A stretch of 64,000 bases of DNA. Origin: Escherichia phage vB_EcoM_EP57. The notes below the pieces were generated by a model. That model was given only the letters and a program-made list of their open reading frames with translations, was not told where the DNA came from and made no database searches. A program made the position numbers and the translations under genes. Below are positions 729 through 58,828 of the stretch, in pieces; the stretch's first letter is position 1, and every line of letters begins with the position of its first letter. The DNA lies in the sequence record OR544956; one strand, written 5' to 3'.

Positions 729-1079
729 ATGAGTAATTTTGATGAAATTCAAGAACTTGTTTGGGATTTATCTGGTGATGTGGATTACATTTCAGATTAT
801 CTTTCAAAAGTTTACCCTGGGGTAAGCGTTATGATTGTGACCAAAGATCCAATTAATTTGCCTCCTAATGTTGTAGCTTGTTGTGGAAGTGGTTCAGGAG
901 AAGTAGAGCCTGTATCTCGTTGGGAATTAACTAAAGCTGTTTCAAAACGAAACGGTGAAGTTTTGAATATTGATATTGAGCAAATATGGACTTCTCCAGC
1001 AGCCAAATGGAATGATCCAAATGGTTGGGATTTGTTCTTCTGGGATAATGAGACTGATGATGAGGTGTTTTTAAAATGA
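729..1079 (+). CDS. Hypothetical protein
   Basis: ORF with ATG start preceded by ggagag; no recognisable motif. Confidence 0.4.
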   Translation: MSNFDEIQELVWDLSGDVDYISDYLSKVYPGVSVMIVTKDPINLPPNVVACCGSGSGEVEPVSRWELTKAVSKRNGEVLNIDIEQIWTSPAAKWNDPNGWDLFFWDNETDDEVFLK

Positions 1080-1146
1080 AATACTTGTTGGTTGTGTTTG
1101 AAAATATCTGTTTTGCAATAGGGTTGTTTGTTGTAATTTTTGTATT

Positions 1147-1175
1147 GACAAGCGTAATCAACGGCAGTAAAGTGA
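1147..1175 (+). promoter_or_regulatory. Candidate sigma70-like promoter (TTGACA-17-TAAAGT)
   Basis: TTGACA at 1147-1152 and TAAAGT 17 nt downstream, upstream of the lipoprotein gene. Confidence 0.3.
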
Positions 1176-1262
1176 GTTTATACCGAGATGGAGAGCAACT
1201 TTATTGCTTCTCTGGAGATTTCAAACACAGATGTATTAATAGCCAAAACGAGGAAAGCAAAT

Positions 1263-1700
1263 ATGAAAAAACTAGCCCTGATTTTAATTGGTTGTATCTT
1301 TTTAACAGCTTGCGAGGATGAAACAAATCCTGCACAATACCAACAACCTCCTCAACAATACGCTCAACAAGGATCTGACGGAGATACAACTATTATCAAC
1401 AATGGTGGCGGTTCTAGTAGTAGCGGTGTTGGTGAGTTTGCTACAGGTATGTTGTTAGGGCATATGATGAGTGGCGGTAGTAATCGTAGCAGTGGGGATT
1501 ATAACGATAACAGAACGATTATTAATAAGCATTATAATACACCTAAACCGAAAACTAATTTTTATGGTAAGCCTAAACAAGAGATAAAAACTTATGAAAA
1601 GCCGAGACAAACTTTTAAAACAAATAGTAGCTATACAACTCGTAAATCTTACAATAGCCCTTTAAGTAAAAAGAGTTCATCTCGTAGCAAGCGACGTTAA
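1263..1700 (+). CDS. Putative lipoprotein (signal peptide with lipobox LTAC, Gly/Ser-rich, basic C-terminus)
   Basis: Internal ATG at 1263 preceded by gaggaaag; MKKLALILIGCIFLTAC; the track ORF 1188..1700 is the same frame with an earlier start. Confidence 0.5.
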   Translation: MKKLALILIGCIFLTACEDETNPAQYQQPPQQYAQQGSDGDTTIINNGGGSSSSGVGEFATGMLLGHMMSGGSNRSSGDYNDNRTIINKHYNTPKPKTNFYGKPKQEIKTYEKPRQTFKTNSSYTTRKSYNSPLSKKSSSRSKRR

Positions 1701-7388: not shown

Positions 7389-7910
7389 TTGCTGATAAAA
7401 AACTTTGTAACAGTTGCGTTACTATCCTTAACTGCTTTTACATTTACACCTGTTGTGGCGAAAGCCGAAGCTGCAAACGTAAAAACCGCTAAAGTAGTTC
7501 ACAAATGTACAAAGCAATATAATGATAAAATTCTATTAGCTTGTGCAATTTACGCAGAAGGTCGCGGTCTGGGTAAAAAAGGAATGAATGCCGTTGGGAA
7601 TGTGGTAATCAACAGAAGAAATGATACCTACTTCCCTAACACAGTCAGAGGAGTCTTGTTCCAGAAAGGGCAATTCTCATATGCGAAAACTTTTAACGTA
7701 ACAGAGAAAGATAAGTGGCAGGAAGCAAAAGCAATAGCGGAGCGTTTACTTTATTTAGAGAAACATTTTCCTGAATTGCGGTCTGTTTTAGATGTTACTA
7801 AAGGTGCTCTATACTTCAAGAAACGGAATATAAGAACACACTGGGAACGTGATATGCGTCTTGTTTATCGAGATAAAGTGCATGGTTTCTATCTACCAAA
7901 GGGGAGTTAA
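7389..7910 (+). CDS. Cell-wall hydrolase, SleB/CwlJ-like, with N-terminal signal peptide (candidate endolysin)
   Basis: Signal peptide MLIKNFVTVALLSLTAF; motif LACAIYAEGRGLG...NVVINR typical of Hydrolase_2 family. Confidence 0.5.
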   Translation: MLIKNFVTVALLSLTAFTFTPVVAKAEAANVKTAKVVHKCTKQYNDKILLACAIYAEGRGLGKKGMNAVGNVVINRRNDTYFPNTVRGVLFQKGQFSYAKTFNVTEKDKWQEAKAIAERLLYLEKHFPELRSVLDVTKGALYFKKRNIRTHWERDMRLVYRDKVHGFYLPKGS

Positions 7911-49981: not shown

Positions 49982-52057
49982 TTATCTTTTACGGACACTA
50001 TACGGTTGGTGAAATCCGCTGTTCATTCTACTGTATCCTGTAGGAGCATTTGTTGTTGTAGGGATAGCTACTGCTTTGAAAGTATTCTCTTTTGACAGAG
50101 TATTAAAACAAGAGGCAGCAGCATCGGGAATGTCATCTTTAATAGTGGCTGTAGATCTTTCACCATTGAAAGATTCCAATTCTTTATAAAAGTGGGTTAA
50201 AGTCTCCACATTAGGGAAAGAATCTTCAACAATATAAACAAAACCGTTTTGACACGCACTACTAAAAGGCATGAAACGCTGAAGCTTTTTCTTGTTACCT
50301 GGCATAGCATCTGGTTTAACAACAAAACCCTCTAGAATAAGTTTCTTTGCAGACTCTGTGTATTCTATTGTCCCAGCACCAGATGGGTCTTTAGGAAGCA
50401 CTACTGTAACTTCTGGTCCATCAATCTTACATTGATTTAGAATCAGGTTATCCCTTTCCCCAGGTAGTCTTCGAAACCTTCCGAAAATTTTACTTTTCTC
50501 ATCCACAGCATCATAATCATAGTCGCCAAAGATGTAGATATTACCATCTTGGTCTTTACCCATTTTGACAGATGTTGTATAGTCTGGATAACGGTAAGTT
50601 TCTGTAGGAACTGAAACAGCTTTATCCCATGCTCGCATTAGTTTAAGATTGTTAGGAACATCTTTATAAGATATTTTATGTAACCATTCACGTTGAAAGA
50701 AAGATTCTTTCTGGATACGTGCAAACCAACAACCGTCCAGAAGCTGTGCTCTTTTGATCGCTGTTTGTGATTTAAGCTGTGCTAAGTAATTAGGGTTAAG
50801 CCTAATGAGTTCTGGGTTATCAAATATTGTCCCACCAATAAATACGAAAGTTTGTGGTTCAATAACAACTGTCTCCCCTGTATTAGGGTTTTCCATGAAA
50901 CAGTTTTCTGGATATTTTTCTTTCAGTTCTTCAGGTGTGTCAGCAAAAACAGGTTCATCGTTAACAATGATGAAATATTTTTGTTTACCACACATATCTT
51001 CTCTAGGATAACCACCCTCATCAAGATAAGGTAACACCCAATTCAAAACCCAACTATCTGCGTCAGGGTTACATGTGCACAACATGAAACTTGTTTCTGA
51101 CTCTGAACGCATACGTCCCAGAAGATAGAGCATTTCATATTGTGTGAAGTGGGTTAACTCGTCAAAACCTACCATTGAATACTGTGTACCCTGATGGTTT
51201 GTTTCTGCTGTTACGTTATCATTTTCCAAATGGTCAAATTTGAGGGTTCCGCCACCAGTGGCTTCAAAAATGATATCCATTGTACTTTCTTTTACGTGTG
51301 GTTGTAAAGGAAGATACAAACGTTTTGCTTCTGTAAACAGACCACCTGGTTTACGGTGAGCAGTGGTGTTCTTACGGAAAAGTATTCCACCAAACAAAGG
51401 GTCTTTGTAGGCGTATTTTAAAGCTTTCAGCAATAGCAGACGAGACTTGCCGCTATTCCCAGTAACGAAGCAGTGATCGCCACGTCTAAAGACAATATAG
51501 CTGCTTGGAGTCTCAAAACAATATTTCTTATCATCTGTTGAAATAACCTCGTGTATTTTTAAGTAAGTGCTCTTTTTACCAGGTATGTTAAAAGGAACAC
51601 GTTTACCGAATGGATTTTCTACATAACCTTGCAGGGGTTTTCCTATTTGCTGTAATGCAATAAGATCTCCTACAAGAATCTCGAAATGTTTCTTTGATTT
51701 CTTTTTCTTATAGAATACAAAACGGTGTTCCATACTAAGTTCTTGGAATAATCCTACACCATTTGTTATTCTGTATAGGTTATCTCCATTTAAATCGTAT
51801 TCTACAAAATAAGGTGTTACCAATTCTAAACGCTTATTCTTAGGATTGTATTGGTAAATATCCTCTCCCGAATATTCACTAATCTGCCTCCAACCATCTT
51901 TTGTAAGATATTCCGTTTCAGCAGAAACACATCCAGCGGCACCACCATAAATCATAACCTCTGGCATTAAATCCATTGCAAGAGTCTGTTTACCTGGTTG
52001 AGCCTTTACTTCAATATCTACTCCAGCTAAACTACCTGCTGCCTTTTTCTTTGCCAC
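49982..52057 (-). CDS. Terminase large subunit, intein-containing
   Basis: Walker A split as GGAAG / SGKS by an insertion; C-terminal nuclease region; 691 aa including a 159-aa intein. Confidence 0.8.
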   Translation of the reverse strand: MAKKKAAGSLAGVDIEVKAQPGKQTLAMDLMPEVMIYGGAAGCVSAETEYLTKDGWRQISEYSGEDIYQYNPKNKRLELVTPYFVEYDLNGDNLYRITNGVGLFQELSMEHRFVFYKKKKSKKHFEILVGDLIALQQIGKPLQGYVENPFGKRVPFNIPGKKSTYLKIHEVISTDDKKYCFETPSSYIVFRRGDHCFVTGNSGKSRLLLLKALKYAYKDPLFGGILFRKNTTAHRKPGGLFTEAKRLYLPLQPHVKESTMDIIFEATGGGTLKFDHLENDNVTAETNHQGTQYSMVGFDELTHFTQYEMLYLLGRMRSESETSFMLCTCNPDADSWVLNWVLPYLDEGGYPREDMCGKQKYFIIVNDEPVFADTPEELKEKYPENCFMENPNTGETVVIEPQTFVFIGGTIFDNPELIRLNPNYLAQLKSQTAIKRAQLLDGCWFARIQKESFFQREWLHKISYKDVPNNLKLMRAWDKAVSVPTETYRYPDYTTSVKMGKDQDGNIYIFGDYDYDAVDEKSKIFGRFRRLPGERDNLILNQCKIDGPEVTVVLPKDPSGAGTIEYTESAKKLILEGFVVKPDAMPGNKKKLQRFMPFSSACQNGFVYIVEDSFPNVETLTHFYKELESFNGERSTATIKDDIPDAAASCFNTLSKENTFKAVAIPTTTNAPTGYSRMNSGFHQPYSVRKR
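51455..51931 (-). other. Mini-intein (Hint domain without homing endonuclease) inserted in the terminase P-loop
   Basis: Begins with Cys (CVSAETEYL) right after GGAAG and ends ...DHCFVTGN followed by SGKS; removing it restores a GGAAGSGKS-type P-loop. Confidence 0.6.
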
Positions 52058-52060
52058 TCC

Positions 52061-52405
52061 TTATTCAGCAATAATACCTTTTTCTTGCAGTGTTTTAATA
52101 TATGTTTGTAAACCTAGAACCTTTCGTCTATCTTGCTCCCAAAGAGCATTGTTTTGAGTTTGGTTGTTAACAACTTCAGATCTACTAACCCCTTTTGCAA
52201 TTTGATTTTTAGTGTATGGCACAGGTGTCGATACTTTATCCATCAAGTCCGAATCTGGACCTTTAACCTTTTCTATGGCTACAGCCTTACACTCATCAAT
52301 AAGAACTGGGGAAACTTTTGTTGATGATGAACAACCCGTCATCATTAGGGGCAAAGCAAGACATACTGCCAGAATTAGTTTTTGCATAATTCGTTGTATC
52401 CTCAT
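52061..52405 (-). CDS. Outer-membrane spanin (o-spanin, Rz1-like lipoprotein)
   Basis: Lipobox LMMTGC; overlaps the 3' end of the i-spanin gene in another frame. Confidence 0.45.
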   Translation of the reverse strand: MRIQRIMQKLILAVCLALPLMMTGCSSSTKVSPVLIDECKAVAIEKVKGPDSDLMDKVSTPVPYTKNQIAKGVSRSEVVNNQTQNNALWEQDRRKVLGLQTYIKTLQEKGIIAE

Positions 52406-52688
52406 TGATCGTTTGTTTCTTCTTCTCTAAATCTGCTTTTAATTGTGCATTGTTTTTAGACAAGTTGTTTATTTGAGTATTTAATAATGCTCTTTCTTCA
52501 TCTGCTCTTTTTTGAAGAACATCAAAATCTTGTTTTGCTTTTGCTTGGGCTGCTTGATATACTTGCGTTTGATAGGCAACACCATCTTTGTAGCCAGACT
52601 CACGTATCTTGTTATAAGCAAACATTCCGGCAAGAATAAGAACAACAATTAAAACAAAACTTAATACAGTTTTAGTCTTTAGATTCAT
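52296..52688 (-). CDS. Inner-membrane spanin (i-spanin, Rz-like)
   Basis: N-terminal TM (VLSFVLIVVLILAGMFAY) followed by coiled-coil. Confidence 0.5.
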   Translation of the reverse strand: MNLKTKTVLSFVLIVVLILAGMFAYNKIRESGYKDGVAYQTQVYQAAQAKAKQDFDVLQKRADEERALLNTQINNLSKNNAQLKADLEKKKQTINEDTTNYAKTNSGSMSCFAPNDDGLFIINKSFPSSY

Positions 52689-52738
52689 TATCTTCTACTT
52701 CCTCATAAAATTTTATTTTAGGAAGAGAAGGGGCGTTG

Positions 52739-52909
52739 TTAACTATCTTCTTCACTTCCATTGGTTGAGCCTCCGCTAGGATCTCTTCCCAAGTCTTCTC
52801 TGTCATCATAAAGTTCTTCCTCCAAGTTCCAAGCCCGTGTGTAATCATTCTTTTTATCTTTATGATAAGAAGAACGGTTAAAATCATTTTTAACTACAAA
52901 ATTGCGCAT
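52739..52909 (-). CDS. Small acidic protein (56 aa) with strong ribosome-binding site; overlaps track ORF 52672..52887 in another frame
   Basis: gaggagga then ATG at 52909; reads MRNFVVKNDFNRSSYHKDKK... Confidence 0.3.
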   Translation of the reverse strand: MRNFVVKNDFNRSSYHKDKKNDYTRAWNLEEELYDDREDLGRDPSGGSTNGSEEDS

Positions 52910-52930
52910 ATTTTATCCTCCTCATATCTG

Positions 52931-52960
52931 ATCTTATCACAAAATGATATATAATTGCAA
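52931..52960 (-). promoter_or_regulatory. Sigma70-like promoter on the minus strand (TTGCAA-18-TAAGAT)
   Basis: Upstream of the small gene and spanin/terminase block. Confidence 0.4.
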
Positions 52961-52964
52961 GCAT

Positions 52965-53002
52965 TAAAAATAAAAAAGCCCCTAACCTTTCGGAGAGGGG
53001 TG
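52965..53002 (-). terminator. Intrinsic terminator (second of a tandem pair) on the minus strand
   Basis: CCCCUCUCC-GAAA-GGUUAGGGG then CUUUUUUAUUUUU; a first hairpin GGGGCUUUGCCCC lies at 53021-53034. Confidence 0.45.
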
Positions 53003-53049
53003 TTAAAAATAACAAGGAGGAGGGGCAAAGCCCCAAGAGAGGAGAGGGA

Positions 53050-53346
53050 TTAGATTACGATCTTTTTAGGAACGTCATCTGTATTCTGCACGGCAGGGGT
53101 TTCTTCTTCCATAGCTTCATAATGTTCTTCTAACCATTCTTCTACTTGCTCTTTAATAGCTTTAGCTGCTTGGAAGCGGAGAGGTTTTGCTGCATCCTTA
53201 TCATTAACAAGTTCAACAATATACCGCATAGCTTCTAAATAATGCTCTGCAAATAATTCTTTTACACTTGCTTGCGCCGCATCCATTGCGTAAATCTGTT
53301 GCATTTCGGCTGTTGGTCTTCCACGACCACGTTTTAGTTTAGGCAT
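53050..53346 (-). CDS. Small DNA-binding protein with AT-hook-like KRGRGRP motif (terminase small subunit candidate)
   Basis: 98 aa; its own promoter and tandem terminators. Confidence 0.3.
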   Translation of the reverse strand: MPKLKRGRGRPTAEMQQIYAMDAAQASVKELFAEHYLEAMRYIVELVNDKDAAKPLRFQAAKAIKEQVEEWLEEHYEAMEEETPAVQNTDDVPKKIVI

Positions 53347-53367
53347 AATAAAATCCTCCTAAACTTT

Positions 53368-53396
53368 ATCTTAACATATAAAAAATAATAAGTCAA
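53368..53396 (-). promoter_or_regulatory. Sigma70-like promoter on the minus strand (TTGACT-17-TAAGAT)
   Basis: Followed by AGGAGG and the ATG of 53050..53346. Confidence 0.45.
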
Positions 53397-53553
53397 GTTT
53401 TATTCAATAGATAGCAAAAAGCCTCCAATAAGGAGGCTAATAAATACTGTTAAGTTGAAATGCTTTATTATAATTGTGCGTTAAGGAGTCGCACCCCTCC
53501 ATCTTAGAAGGAACCAGGCAAGGTCTTCAAAGATACCGCTGGCAAGCGATATT

Positions 53554-53632
53554 TGGAGGCGGGAATTGGATTTGAACCAATGATCTCCAGCATATGAAAC
53601 TGGCGAGGACGACCAGACTCCTCTATCCCGCT
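53554..53632 (-). tRNA. tRNA with anticodon CAT (Met or Ile2)
   Basis: Manual fold: T-arm ATTGG-TTCAAAT-CCAAT, anticodon loop TTCATAT, CCA encoded; 1-72 is an A-C mismatch. Confidence 0.55.
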
Positions 53633-53638
53633 ATTATG

Positions 53639-53708
53639 TATCCCGTGCTGGATTCGAACCAGCATCACAATAAGCTGTGGAACTCTTATCCTGTAAGTCT
53701 AACGGGAA
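53639..53708 (-). tRNA. tRNA-like element, unassigned (anticodon arm cannot be folded; possibly degenerate)
   Basis: Good T-arm GCTGG-TTCGAAT-CCAGC and acceptor pairing, but only about 70 nt. Confidence 0.3.
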
Positions 53709-53710
53709 AC

Positions 53711-53784
53711 TGGTTGTTTCGACAAGAATCGAACTTGTGTCTCACGATTATCAGTCGTGGGTTCTACCATTGAACTACGAAACA
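53711..53784 (-). tRNA. tRNA-Ile (anticodon GAT)
   Basis: Perfect acceptor, T-arm and anticodon stem; loop CTGATAA; CCA encoded. Confidence 0.7.
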
Positions 53785-53790
53785 TTAAAT

Positions 53791-53867
53791 TGGTCGGAAT
53801 TGCAGGATTCGAACCTGCGACCCTACGCTCCCAAAGCGTATGCTCTACCAAACTGAGCTAAATTCCG
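53791..53867 (-). tRNA. tRNA-Pro (anticodon TGG)
   Basis: Perfect cloverleaf; anticodon loop TTTGGGA; CCA encoded. Confidence 0.7.
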
Positions 53868-53960
53868 TCATAACATTCTAAAGGTACACCGCAAAAGAAA
53901 GTGTTCGGCGGCTCCTCGTTTTTAACTTCACACTTGAGGTAGTGACTCACCTTTGTTATA

Positions 53961-54036
53961 TGGCTGGTCTGTCTGGATTTGAACCAAACCTACGACAGTC
54001 AAAGTGTCGTGTGCTACCGGACTACACTACAAACCA
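53961..54036 (-). tRNA. tRNA-Gln (anticodon TTG)
   Basis: Cloverleaf with anticodon loop CTTTGAC; CCA encoded. Confidence 0.65.
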
Positions 54037-54134
54037 ATAAATCATTTAATGAAGGGCAACCAGAAGAGGTGTGAGAGAAGGAGAAAACCATGAGTAAAAG
54101 AGAAAGTTTTCTGGCAACCCTTTATTAAATAATT

Positions 54135-54208
54135 TGGAGCGTTCTACGAGGATCGAACTCGTGCCGCCGACTTGGAAGGACGGAATGCTACCGCTACACC
54201 AAGAACGC
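54135..54208 (-). tRNA. tRNA-Gly (anticodon TCC)
   Basis: Acceptor GCGTTCT/AGAACGC, anticodon loop CTTCCAA; one mismatch in the anticodon stem. Confidence 0.55.
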
Positions 54209-54219
54209 CCTACATCTTT

Positions 54220-54249
54220 ACTATACTACATTTTACTATTGGTTGTCAA
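54220..54249 (-). promoter_or_regulatory. tRNA-operon promoter 1 (CTATTGACAA-18-TATAGT)
   Basis: Minus strand; -10 ends about 11 nt before the tRNA-Gly 5' end. Confidence 0.55.
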
Positions 54250-54524
54250 TAGTTTTATTGAGTGGGACAGTGACGAGTATCCCGTTGGGTGACTAGCCCT
54301 ACGTTCGGTAAGCTAACTTAAAATAATACAAAACCAAAGTCAAATATTATTCTTCGTTGCTGTCGATGGGAGAGCCGCTTCTCATTTTGCCCCATCCAAC
54401 CCTACTCCGGTCAAGTTTCGGGTAACTCTTTTTGTGTGATCAACACAATACTAAGAACACTGTCTTTCGAACAGACCTTGTGCACAGGATACGACGATCA
54501 ATCACAGTGCTCTTAATGTTGTGT

Positions 54525-54599
54525 TGGTGCTCCCACACTGAATCGAACAGAGATCCACGGATTACAAAACCGTTGTAATAGCCATTATACTATAGGAGC
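54525..54599 (-). tRNA. tRNA-Thr (anticodon TGT)
   Basis: Anticodon loop TTTGTAA; minor stem mismatches. Confidence 0.5.
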
Positions 54600-54605
54600 A
54601 AAGCT

Positions 54606-54682
54606 GGGACTCGGCAGGATTCGATACCTGCAATTCCAGAAGCCTCTTGGCGACTGGGGGTTTACCTTAACTCTACAAGTCC
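54606..54682 (-). tRNA. tRNA-like element, unassigned (T-arm near-identical to tRNA-Pro but with an 8-nt loop; no foldable anticodon arm)
   Basis: gcaggattcgatacctgc versus gcaggattcgaacctgc in tRNA-Pro. Confidence 0.3.
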
Positions 54683-54689
54683 ATAATTC

Positions 54690-54775
54690 TGGCGATGAGT
54701 ATAGGATTTGAACCTATATCGTTCTTTCGAACACGGATTAACAGTCCGCCGCTTAAACCATTCAGCCAACTCATC
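54690..54775 (-). tRNA. Class II (long variable arm) tRNA with anticodon GTT
   Basis: Perfect acceptor GATGAGT/ACTCATC, T-arm ATAGG-TTCAAAT-CCTAT, extra arm GTTC-GAAA-GAAC, anticodon loop CTGTTAA. Confidence 0.45.
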
Positions 54776-54781
54776 TTAATT

Positions 54782-54869
54782 TGGTGGTGAGTGATGGAGT
54801 TGAACCACCCGAATCGCAATGATAACAGATTTACAGTCTGCCCCGCTACCCCTACGGAATTAACTCACC
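54782..54869 (-). tRNA. tRNA-Tyr (anticodon GTA), class II
   Basis: Anticodon arm CAGA-CTGTAAA-TCTG as in E. coli tRNA-Tyr; 88 nt. Confidence 0.6.
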
Positions 54870-54947
54870 TAAATACTAATATTTAAATTCTTTTTAAAAT
54901 AGCCAGTGTTCACACCACTAACTATGTAAGCCATATTAAAAAGAACT

Positions 54948-55033
54948 TGGCGGTAGATGTAGGACTCGAACCTACACGCCGTTTCCGACTACAGTTTAGC
55001 AAACTGTCGTGGCTACCATTTCACCAATCTACC
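54948..55033 (-). tRNA. tRNA-Ser (anticodon GCT), class II
   Basis: Anticodon arm ACAGT-TTGCTAA-ACTGT; long variable arm. Confidence 0.65.
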
Positions 55034-55038
55034 TAATC

Positions 55039-55129
55039 TGGCGGAAGGAGGGAGAGTCGAACTCCCAAGGCTCTTTCAAGCTCGGCGGTTTTCAAGACCG
55101 TTTTCGTCGCCACGTCGATTTGCCCTTCC
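55039..55129 (-). tRNA. tRNA-Ser (anticodon TGA), class II
   Basis: Anticodon loop CTTGAAA; long variable arm; 91 nt. Confidence 0.55.
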
Positions 55130-55137
55130 ATACTTAT

Positions 55138-55167
55138 AATCTAACATAAAATAATGTTTGTTGTCAA
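55138..55167 (-). promoter_or_regulatory. tRNA-operon promoter 2 (CTATTGACAA-18-TAGATT)
   Basis: Minus strand; -10 ends about 9 nt before the tRNA-Ser(TGA) 5' end. Confidence 0.5.
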
Positions 55168-55363
55168 TAGTTTTTTAAAACATTTTACCATGAATGGTGA
55201 CTCCACCAACCCCCGTTCTCCACGAACGGTGCTCTTCGAGCATTTATGTCTTCTAATATAACCGTGGCCTTTGTTTATAATGTCTGACATACTTGCCTCA
55301 TTCTCTGCCACCATGATCAGTAGTGGGTTCAAATTACTTGAGCTAATTCATGTTAAAATGTTC

Positions 55364-55438
55364 TGGTGTCTTTACAAGGAATCGAACCTTGACTAAGAGT
55401 TTAGAAGACTCCTGTGCTATCCATTACACCATAAAGAC
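55364..55438 (-). tRNA. tRNA-Arg (anticodon TCT)
   Basis: Anticodon loop CTTCTAA; acceptor GTCTTTA/TAAAGAC. Confidence 0.6.
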
Positions 55439-55440
55439 GT

Positions 55441-55515
55441 TGGTGGCCCTGGCTGGTTTCGATCCAGCTACCTATCGGTTATGAGCCGACAGCTCTCCCA
55501 TTGAGCTACAGGGCC
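55441..55515 (-). tRNA. tRNA with anticodon CAT (Met or Ile2), second copy
   Basis: Acceptor GGCCCTG/CAGGGCC, D-stem GCTC/GAGC, anticodon loop CTCATAA. Confidence 0.6.
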
Positions 55516-56915: not shown

Positions 56916-57332
56916 ATGAGATTTACAAGACAAGAGGTAGTTGTACTTGACGAAGCAATGACAATGATCGTCTTTTACTATGAGGATATCTTCTGTGCAG
57001 CATATCATTTAAATGATATTCAGATTGAATGGAAGCAGATAGCATTCCTGTTGGACAAGAGTAATCATTTGGATGGCTTTGAGTATTTGGAGTGGGATGG
57101 TGCAAAGGAAGTTAAAATTGTAGGGTTAAATCACGATCAGATTGTTGACATGCAATGTAAGTTGTGTCATTATCAGTTCTCAAACAATCCTGGCAACAAT
57201 TGTTCTGATTTTTGCCATGTGTGTGGTTCACGATGTTCTGGTAAGCTACTTTTGAAGACACAAGATGTGTCCTACAGCCGTGTTACGCTTACTGGCGACC
57301 ATACCCCAATCATGGAGTACGTAAAGAAATGA
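56916..57332 (+). CDS. Cys-rich hypothetical protein
   Basis: CKLCHY ... CHVCGSRC; taggaggctagaATG. Confidence 0.4.
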   Translation: MRFTRQEVVVLDEAMTMIVFYYEDIFCAAYHLNDIQIEWKQIAFLLDKSNHLDGFEYLEWDGAKEVKIVGLNHDQIVDMQCKLCHYQFSNNPGNNCSDFCHVCGSRCSGKLLLKTQDVSYSRVTLTGDHTPIMEYVKK

Positions 57333-58132
57333 GCAACTATCCAATTACAGGCGTAACCTATTCTTGTGTAGCAAAAGGTGGTTTATATACAGTAGTGGAA
57401 TTTCCAAAACCTGCCGGAATATCTAAAGTGTTTGATCCTGTGGTTATCTATGAAGATCTTAGAACAGGTCAACGTTACTGGAGATTTGTGAATGACTTTT
57501 TAGATCGTATGGAGGTAGTAAGTGGCGAAAACACCGAAGAAGTTATCAAAGCCAACGTTACTAAGAAACCGAAAAACGAGGTTCTCAAAGTAGCCAAATC
57601 AGTTCCTAAGAAAGATAAATTTGATACGGAGGCATTCGTCTTTGACACACCAATCGAGAAGATTGAAGAAGCGTTGCAACGTCTTGAGGAGCAGGAGGCA
57701 GATCCAATGGCTGAACCACTCGCTGAAGCAAAAAACATTGGTCGTTCCAATGAAACAACACCAGAAGAACAAGCTGAACTTGAAGCTTTTGCCAAATGGA
57801 CAAAACAGTTAAAGAATGGCTATTATAAAACAAAAGAAGAAGCTGAAAACCATGTTCCTTCCACACCAATGAAATGCCAGGATTATAAAGATTATCCTGA
57901 AAGGGTTGTGTTCCCTGGTTATGCACAATACAAACTGAACGGGTTACGTTCTATGATTAACATGAAAGGAGAGTGTTTATCAAAAGCTGGGGAAGTGTAC
58001 AACCTGCCACCTCATTGGAAAGGTATTCCAAACTTTATTAGTGAAGTTGTTGGTCATCCTCTTGATGGTGAAGTGTTTGCTGGGTTAGGTGTCCTTAGTC
58101 TGCAACAAATTAACAGTGCTTGCAGTAGTTGA
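57329..58132 (+). CDS. ATP-dependent DNA ligase-like protein, N-terminal and adenylation part; frame changes near 58090-58130
   Basis: Motif I-like YKLNGLR (KxDG-type with N in place of D) and motif III-like LDGEVFA. Confidence 0.45.
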   Translation: MSNYPITGVTYSCVAKGGLYTVVEFPKPAGISKVFDPVVIYEDLRTGQRYWRFVNDFLDRMEVVSGENTEEVIKANVTKKPKNEVLKVAKSVPKKDKFDTEAFVFDTPIEKIEEALQRLEEQEADPMAEPLAEAKNIGRSNETTPEEQAELEAFAKWTKQLKNGYYKTKEEAENHVPSTPMKCQDYKDYPERVVFPGYAQYKLNGLRSMINMKGECLSKAGEVYNLPPHWKGIPNFISEVVGHPLDGEVFAGLGVLSLQQINSACSS

Positions 58133-58592
58133 AGATTATGGTCTTGATGAGCTTATTTGTGTAGTTCATACAGAGTATATTGAAAACCAAGAACAGTTTG
58201 ATGCTTTCTATGAAAAAGCTTTACTTGAGAAAGCTGAAGGTGTAGTATATCGTAATGCTCACGGAGTTTACGAATTTGATAAACGTTCTTATGACGTTAT
58301 TAAACGTAAGCCTCGCCATACGCTTGAAGTTAAAGTAATAAATTCAAAAAGTGATAAAAATGGCGATGGAGTGTTGACAGGTGAGATGGAAAATGGTAAA
58401 GTAGTCGAATTCTTAATGCGTAAAGATGCTCATGAGACTATCAATTATCGTAAAGCAGAGAATGCTTCTACCTTGATTAATCAGTTCGTTGAAATAGAGT
58501 ATGAAGAATTTTCAGATGAAGGTATTCCAACAAAACCTGTTGGTGTTCGTATTCGAGAAATGATCCCAGGCACTTGGGAACCAGCAGAATAA
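58089..58592 (+). CDS. DNA ligase C-terminal part (motif IV/V and OB-fold region), +1 frame relative to 57329..58132
   Basis: EGVVYRN ... KPRHTLEVKV pattern typical of ligase motifs IV-VI. Confidence 0.45.
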   Translation: MSLVCNKLTVLAVVEDYGLDELICVVHTEYIENQEQFDAFYEKALLEKAEGVVYRNAHGVYEFDKRSYDVIKRKPRHTLEVKVINSKSDKNGDGVLTGEMENGKVVEFLMRKDAHETINYRKAENASTLINQFVEIEYEEFSDEGIPTKPVGVRIREMIPGTWEPAE

Positions 58593-58645
58593 GGAGGAAA
58601 AATGTTCTTAGCTTATCATTGTGCAAAATACCTGGAGGCATTTTT

Positions 58646-58828
58646 ATGATAATTTTAGCAACAATTCTTATGATGTTGATAGCAATTGCTATTATAATTC
58701 TGGCATCTTTTCCGGCGGATAAATGGTATTTCAATATTCCACGTATGCTTGTTTTCGGTTTCGCAGGGATTTACATGGGTGAGTCTGTAGTAAATATTAG
58801 CAACTTTCTAGAAAGCTATTTTAAATAA
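58646..58828 (+). CDS. Small two-TM membrane protein (holin-like candidate)
   Basis: Internal ATG at 58646 after ggaggca; MIILATILMMLIAIAIIILA and MLVFGFAGIYMG hydrophobic segments. Confidence 0.3.
   Translation: MIILATILMMLIAIAIIILASFPADKWYFNIPRMLVFGFAGIYMGESVVNISNFLESYFK

Follow-up and report, generated by a model that had tools for sequence, protein, structure and literature searches.

An already catalogued and probable two-component spanin gene pair next to the large terminase gene of Escherichia phage vB_EcoM_EP57

Overlapped gene pair and its source

Two overlapping open reading frames (ORFs) of Escherichia phage vB_EcoM_EP57 (OR544956) very probably encode the two-component spanin of a phAPEC8-like phage. 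They were found in a 64-kb stretch of DNA (64,000 nucleotides, hereafter the window), on the minus strand at 52061..52688, where a 130-aa ORF, the i-spanin gene (52296..52688; phrog_4297, SpaninDB phAPEC8_OIS), overlaps by 110 nt a 114-aa ORF, the o-spanin gene (52061..52405, counted from the first ATG; phrog_1267, SpaninDB phAPEC8_OOS). The original prediction had placed an overlapped pair in different frames at 52061-52688. These coordinates proved exact: both ORFs are present in the ORF list as described, and the o-frame is +1 relative to the i-frame over the 110 nt. The spanin identity proposed there was also supported, as all the defining features that could be tested were found and identical proteins are catalogued as an overlapped pair in SpaninDB. 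Since the identical proteins are listed there, the pair is already known, and the finding is correct but ordinary.

The region 51500-53500 is 99.4-99.7% identical at the nucleotide level to tuntematon, nieznany, phAPEC8 and other E. coli phages of Phapecoctavirus, and on this nucleotide evidence the window is assigned to Phapecoctavirus as a phAPEC8-like E. coli myophage of the subfamily Stephanstirmvirinae. Nucleotide identity to Phapecoctavirus genomes likewise gives a Gram-negative (diderm) host, E. coli. The phAPEC8-like genus is well sampled and is used in phage-therapy work; more than 130 phage genomes have both spanin ORFs intact, and the i-spanin is 100% identical in 30+ phage records. 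In phage SKA64, a feature somewhere in the region that matches 51500..53500 bears the name 'RNA polymerase sigma factor'.

Protein family membership

Both proteins are 100% identical to proteins of phAPEC8, gp121 (i-spanin) and gp120 (o-spanin). Residues 1-128 of the i-spanin match positions 7-129 of 130 in phrog_4297 'Rz-like spanin' (E 3.4e-35), and residues 7-113 of the o-spanin match positions 2-92 of 119 in phrog_1267 'Rz-like spanin' (E 8.7e-21). In their family tables for i-spanins and o-spanins alike, Kongari et al. (2018; PMC6139136) group phi92 with phAPEC8 under 'Overlapped'. The SpaninDB supplement contains these very sequences, marked 'ovl', with a 110-nt overlap, the lipobox 'MMTG', periplasmic parts that are 105 and 90 residues long, and a single periplasmic Cys each (PMC6139136). 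At least one periplasmic Cys is present in 507 of the 528 spanin systems (PMC6139136); here such residues are available for intermolecular disulfides in both proteins (i-spanin C111, o-spanin C39). The RefSeq name for phAPEC8 gp121 is 'Rz-like spanin', and homologs are annotated as i-spanin and o-spanin in Shigella phage SF1-1 and in the BASEL phages EmilieFrey and PaulScherrer.

Neither PF03245 (Phage_lysis) nor an Rz1 model was among the Pfam hits with E up to 1, and in sequence the two proteins thus do not belong to the lambda Rz/Rz1 families. The best Pfam match of the i-spanin, DUF7365, scored 18.5 bits, below the cut-off of 27, and is sub-threshold coiled-coil noise; the o-spanin gave zero Pfam matches in the same range (E up to 1). 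Against NCBIfam, the i-spanin scored 16.6 bits (E 0.0073) with the P2 LysB model TIGR03495, the curated cut-off of which is 92.75, and therefore it is not a member of the P2 LysB family. A unimolecular spanin of the T1 gp11 type was considered and rejected, the o-spanin having neither a C-terminal transmembrane (TM) domain nor any hydrophobic segment beyond the signal peptide. No functional experiments on the phi92/phAPEC8 spanin family were found in the literature searched.

The i-spanin

The i-spanin gene starts with ATG, with GAGGAAG 11 nt upstream. The best Kyte-Doolittle 19-mer of the protein reaches 2.57 at residues 7-25, TVLSFVLIVVLILAGMFAY (codons 52614..52670, minus strand), and other hydrophobic segments are absent; a hydrophobic N-terminal segment is kept in all i-spanin homologs compared. 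The protein thus has a single predicted TM domain at its N-terminus, and from this we infer an orientation with the bulk of the chain in the periplasm.

In the AlphaFold2 (AF2) model the i-spanin forms one continuous helix at residues 3-104, and mean pLDDT per 10-residue block is 89-95 between residues 11 and 90; after the helix comes a C-terminal part, of low confidence, that contains two short strands. The long helix would extend about 80 residues beyond the membrane helix and end in a strongly conserved Cys-containing tail, whose motif, GSMSCFAPNDDGLxIINKSFP, reads GSMSCFxPNDxGLxIINKSFP across the alignment; C111, the only Cys of the protein, is invariant in the aligned homologs. SpaninDB lists a Pepcoil coiled coil at residues 42-106 and about 49% helix in the periplasmic domain (PMC6139136). 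The periplasmic domain is accordingly modeled as largely alpha-helical or coiled coil, and the N-terminal TM segment plus coiled coil that had been proposed for this ORF were both recovered (Kyte-Doolittle 2.57 at 7-25, Pepcoil 42-106, AF2 helix 3-104). The alignments used for AF2, built from database homologs, were shallow (7 and 9 rows), and hence the i-spanin C-terminus and the N-terminal half of the o-spanin were modeled with low confidence.

The o-spanin and its start codon

The o-spanin begins with MRIQRIMQKLILAVCLALPLMMTGC, which carries K/R in the n-region and a core, CLALPLMMTGC, that satisfies the PROSITE PS51257-type pattern; the lipobox LMMTGC of the original prediction was thereby found in place. 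The lipobox codons M-T-G-C (52331..52342, minus strand; regular expression plus PS51257 core) end at Cys25, the predicted lipid-modified residue, which is followed by Ser-Ser. As Ser occupies the +2 position, there is no Lol-avoidance signal, i.e., no inner-membrane-retaining Asp. Position -3 of the lipobox is Met, not L, V or I, and this counts against the spanin reading; the lipobox Cys is invariant, the boxes of relatives being MTGC, ITGC or VVGC, followed by A, S or T, and the ITGC and VVGC boxes of the Klebsiella relatives are canonical. The mature protein has 90 aa with one further Cys, C39, invariant in the alignment. In the AF2 model of the o-spanin, a signal helix and a short helix (33-46) precede a 34-residue amphipathic helix at the C-terminus (75-108); block means were about 82-89 pLDDT over residues 71-100, the N-terminal half having low confidence.

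Translation probably starts at Met7 (ATG 52387), since every homolog has its M[QRK]K start about 18 residues ahead of the Cys; the product would then have 108 aa and the overlap 92 nt. The mature lipoprotein is unchanged whether the start is Met1 or Met7. In many records the gene is mis-started at the internal MMTGC, giving a 94-95-aa product that has lost its signal peptide: this was seen in SF1-1, in iGC_PHA_EC001, in BASEL and in all six clusters (6/6) returned by the o-spanin homolog search of the protein database. RefSeq labels phAPEC8 gp120 'hypothetical protein'. With the start mis-called, or the product left 'hypothetical', in most entries, automated pipelines under-call the o-spanin in Stephanstirmvirinae, so that the practical value of the pair is annotation hygiene, and its weight for discovery is little.

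Conservation of the two overlapping frames

The dual-coding overlap (52296..52405, minus strand; 110 nt) encodes the C-terminus of the i-spanin and the signal peptide of the o-spanin. The pair was compared with five divergent relatives: phiWec179, the Klebsiella phages phi1_175008 and 05F01, EmilieFrey and phi92. All five (5/5) have the same gene order, namely a small acidic ORF, a TM/helical ORF, a +1-frame overlapping lipobox ORF and the gene for the large terminase subunit (TerL), at protein identities of 39-55% for the i-spanin and 53-71% for the o-spanin. The o-frame overlap in relatives is 92-95 nt, against 110 nt here, or 92 nt if counted from Met7. The lipobox Cys and C39 are among the 42 invariant columns of the o-spanin alignment.

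Mean pairwise nucleotide identity among the five divergent lineages was 75% in the overlap versus 56% and 62% in the flanks. In the single-coding parts only 8% (i-frame) and 13% (o-frame) of third codon positions are invariant; for the o-frame outside the overlap, 40% of first and 60% of second positions are invariant, compared with the 13% of third positions. Within the overlap, where the i-frame third positions are the o-frame second positions, 55% are invariant. Because third-position freedom is lost in the overlap and nucleotide conservation is highest there, both frames are judged to be under purifying selection. In these alignments, Stephanstirmvirinae keep the synteny, the lipobox Cys, a single periplasmic Cys in each protein and the dual-frame constraint. 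Scanning of all six frames of the 64-kb window gave only three lipobox-type ORFs, versus a mean of 0.2 in 20 shuffles; chance does not account for the pair.

Genomic neighborhood

The pair lies directly upstream of the large terminase gene, as had been predicted: TerL (49982..52057, minus strand; 691 aa) starts with GTG at 52057, 3 nt past the o-spanin stop, and was recognized by Terminase_6N (E 5e-17) and phrog_979 (E 1e-216). Upstream of the pair there are a 56-aa acidic ORF similar to phAPEC8 gp122 (52739..52909, minus strand), a terminator, a 98-aa ORF and ten tRNA genes; TerL, portal and head genes follow downstream. The 56-aa ORF has no TM segment, belongs to phrog_15229 (E 7e-38; function unannotated) and is the first gene past the terminator, in the same direction. 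The prediction that neither holin nor endolysin neighbors the pair was borne out by this gene content, which comprises small ORFs, tRNAs, TerL, portal and head genes.

The terminator is a hairpin with a U-tract (52966..53000, minus strand) resembling an intrinsic terminator; it was recognized by its fold energy of -12.3 kcal/mol, with a z-score of only -1.57, and is followed by CUUUUUUAUUUUU. The annotation of phage ASO2A lists it as a rho-independent terminator; a simple terminator scan missed it. The hairpin separates the upstream 98-aa gene from a unit formed by the 56-aa ORF, the spanin genes, TerL and portal, and the position of the spanin genes at the head of the packaging operon suggests late co-expression with the terminase and packaging genes. 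A promoter scan of the window returned 14 sites against 11.2 +/- 3.6 expected, which is not above chance; TTGCAA-N18-TAAGAT was seen by eye upstream of 52909 and is absent from the scan output.

The 98-aa ORF (53050..53346, minus strand; phrog_3330) encodes an N-terminal PKLKRGRGRPT and an acidic helical remainder, and has terminator-like hairpins on both sides. The ten tRNA genes (Met, Ile, Pro, Gln, Gly, Thr, Asn, Ser, Arg, Met) lie at 53554..55515 on the minus strand, upstream of the spanin/terminase unit.

Candidate lysins and holins

A SleB-like cell-wall hydrolase is encoded on the plus strand at 7389..7910 (PF07486 Hydrolase_2, E 1.9e-17; phrog_938 endolysin, E 1e-18). Its gene starts with TTG, and the hydrophobic N-terminus, FVTVALLSLTAFTFTPVVAKA followed by EA (..TPVVAKA/EA), resembles a signal peptide or a SAR segment, so that the enzyme may be exported without a large-hole holin; it is a possible lysis partner of the spanins. 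It had been named the only lysin candidate, which is true within the window and no longer so when relatives are included, as these carry a T4-E-like endolysin: EmilieFrey bas61_0208, annotated as endolysin, is a T4-E-like lysozyme that shares about 50% identity with T4 E, and the phapecoctavirus-like TSP7_1 has a copy that matches bas61_0208 at 77%. This lysozyme has no match in the 64-kb window. In BASEL, the homolog of the SleB-like hydrolase is left 'hypothetical'.

The search of the window for holins yielded only two small TM ORFs, 58646..58828 (60 aa, two TM segments) and 1076..1321 (81 aa, one TM segment), both with PHROG function unassigned; from their predicted topology they could be holins. 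The 60-aa ORF (plus strand; phrog_19851) has two strongly hydrophobic segments in a class II holin-like topology and sits between DNA ligase and nucleotide pyrophosphohydrolase. For phage BME3, a pair of distant holin-like proteins of class II has been noted, one with 61 residues and one with 81 (PMC12210895). The annotation of EmilieFrey is devoid of holins throughout. The 'Hol-like chemotaxis protein' of iGC_PHA_EC001 was rejected as a holin, having no TM segment; it has no match in the window.

The window contains a second overlapped pair on the plus strand, in which the 81-aa ORF with an N-terminal TM segment (1076..1321) overlaps by 59 nt a 145-aa lipobox ORF (1263..1700). The predicted lipoprotein has LTAC followed by Glu-Asp and a low-complexity sequence rich in Q, P, G and S with a basic C-terminus; both proteins belong to function-unassigned PHROGs, and the TM protein lacks a long helix. 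This pair is not regarded as a spanin and is possibly an exclusion or envelope-modifying module. Its presence means that the architecture of a TM ORF overlapping a lipobox ORF is, taken alone, not diagnostic.

Comparison with known spanins

No substantive difference was found from phAPEC8 gp121/gp120: the proteins are identical, with the same 110-nt overlap, lipobox and pre-TerL position. The phi92 pair, gp118 and an unannotated partner, is 48-66% identical, with the same overlap, lipobox and place upstream of TerL. With lambda Rz/Rz1 the present pair shares the combination of a type II inner-membrane helical protein with a +1-frame outer-membrane lipoprotein, a periplasmic Cys in both proteins and a Gram-negative host, but detectable sequence homology is absent. 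Rz1 is fully embedded in Rz, whereas the genes here overlap by only 110 nt; the lambda spanin genes come after S and R, while here there is no adjacent holin or endolysin; and the long, helical o-spanin, of 90 aa when mature, is unlike the short lambda Rz1, a proline-rich protein of about 40 aa. In lambda, Nu1 and cos lie between the spanin genes and the large terminase gene. The earlier comparison with lambda-like late operons is thus only a loose analogy, Rz1 being embedded in lambda, any lysin lying far from the pair here, and the lysis genes being scattered as in T4.

The T4 genome is likewise that of a large myophage with dispersed lysis genes, and its o-spanin PseT.2 is structured and not proline-rich; the PseT.3/PseT.2 genes differ in being 'separated' (4-nt junction) and in belonging to other sequence families (PMC6139136). 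Spanin families vary widely in secondary structure, and structured o-spanins include T4 PseT.2 (PMC6139136); the present o-spanin, longer and more structured than lambda Rz1, falls within this range. P2 LysB/LysC have an overlapped architecture too, and the weak LysB-model match spans the TM segment and helix of the present i-spanin.

Proposed mechanism and alternative interpretations

By analogy with lambda Rz/Rz1 and T4 PseT.3/PseT.2, the i-spanin would sit in the inner membrane, its C-terminus reaching into the periplasm, and the o-spanin would be lipidated at Cys25, processed by signal peptidase II and taken to the outer membrane by the Lol system. Each subunit would form disulfide-linked homodimers via its single periplasmic Cys, while the C-terminal regions of the two proteins would bind each other across the periplasm, through the murein meshwork. 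Once the endolysin has destroyed the murein, the complexes are expected to collapse and fuse the inner and outer membranes, removing the last barrier to release. The phi92/phAPEC8 spanin might further be a structurally distinct subclass, with an uninterrupted i-spanin helix of about 100 residues that runs into a small, conserved, Cys-containing beta motif, and a 34-residue amphipathic helix in the o-spanin, encoded by the first cistrons of the packaging operon without a lysis cassette or a recognized holin; we regard this as unlikely. If true, the rod that spans the periplasm would differ from that of lambda Rz/Rz1 both in its construction and in the way it collapses.

Several points speak against the spanin reading, namely the lack of Pfam matches to the lambda families, the long and helical o-spanin, the Met in the lipobox, the want of a neighboring holin or endolysin, the second pair with a similar layout and the low AF2 confidence over parts of both proteins. 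Several other readings of the locus were weighed against a two-component spanin. It is very improbable that the lipoprotein is a superinfection-exclusion or receptor-blocking outer-membrane lipoprotein (T5 Llp, Cor-like) and the TM protein an unrelated one that merely overlaps it. Phage lipoproteins with other roles do exist, another lipobox ORF of the window overlaps a TM ORF, and the o-spanin has weak, signal-peptide-level PHROG matches to Cor (phrog_1119, E 0.91); the strong match, however, is to the spanin family phrog_1267 (E 9e-21), and the protein is curated as an o-spanin. Moreover, throughout the subfamily its gene invariably overlaps an Rz-like TM/coiled-coil partner, it is located in the late packaging operon, not in an early or moron position, and no second coiled-coil spanin candidate was seen in the window. 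That the 130-aa gene alone is genuine, with the 114-aa frame an accidental same-strand open frame, is almost certainly wrong, even though gene callers usually cut the o-spanin to 94 aa, RefSeq calls it 'hypothetical' and a Pfam domain is absent: the frame is open in divergent phages at 53-71% protein identity with 42 invariant columns, its third positions are free outside the overlap while its second positions are conserved inside, and most of the mature domain is encoded beyond the overlap.

There is also little chance that the pair acts in lysis as a regulator or as a non-fusogenic disruptor of the outer membrane rather than by fusion of the Rz/Rz1 type. One record does name the i-spanin 'LysB family lysis regulatory protein'; P2 LysB is the P2 i-spanin, and therefore this record uses an older term for the i-spanin role. 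In favor of a regulator or disruptor, the o-spanin is helical in AF2, not unstructured, and the AF2 helix of the i-spanin is uninterrupted, without the two-helix hinge described for lambda Rz (PMC6139136), but neither hinges nor oligomers can be seen in a monomer AF2 model built on 9 sequences. Besides, SpaninDB gives the periplasmic domain about 49% helix, and secondary structure varies between spanin families.

Additional features of the terminase and of the window

The TerL gene contains an insertion of about 158 aa (Cys43..Asn200; 51458..51931, minus strand) that splits Walker A (MIYGGAAG/C...VTGN/SGKS); the TerLs of Felixounavirus and Seunavirus are uninterrupted at this site (GGAAGAGKT and GGAAGSGKS, respectively). 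The insertion looks like a mini-intein in sequence, its N-junction having Cys and its C-junction Asn-Ser. No intein match for it was found in Pfam, NCBIfam or PDB; phrog_32482 'PhoH-like' matches TerL residues 23-134. In a tblastn search with the spliced-junction TerL, matches began only at query position 41, even in phages with an identical TerL.

Several blocks of the 98%-identical iGC_PHA_EC001 are missing from the window, at 57250..58600 and at other sites. Among them are about 5 kb in which the 'Hol-like' gene lies together with those for RNA ligase and polynucleotide kinase; an HNH endonuclease gene is also absent, as is a portion of the tail-spike region. The DNA ligase of the window is read as two ORFs, 57329..58132 and 58089..58592.
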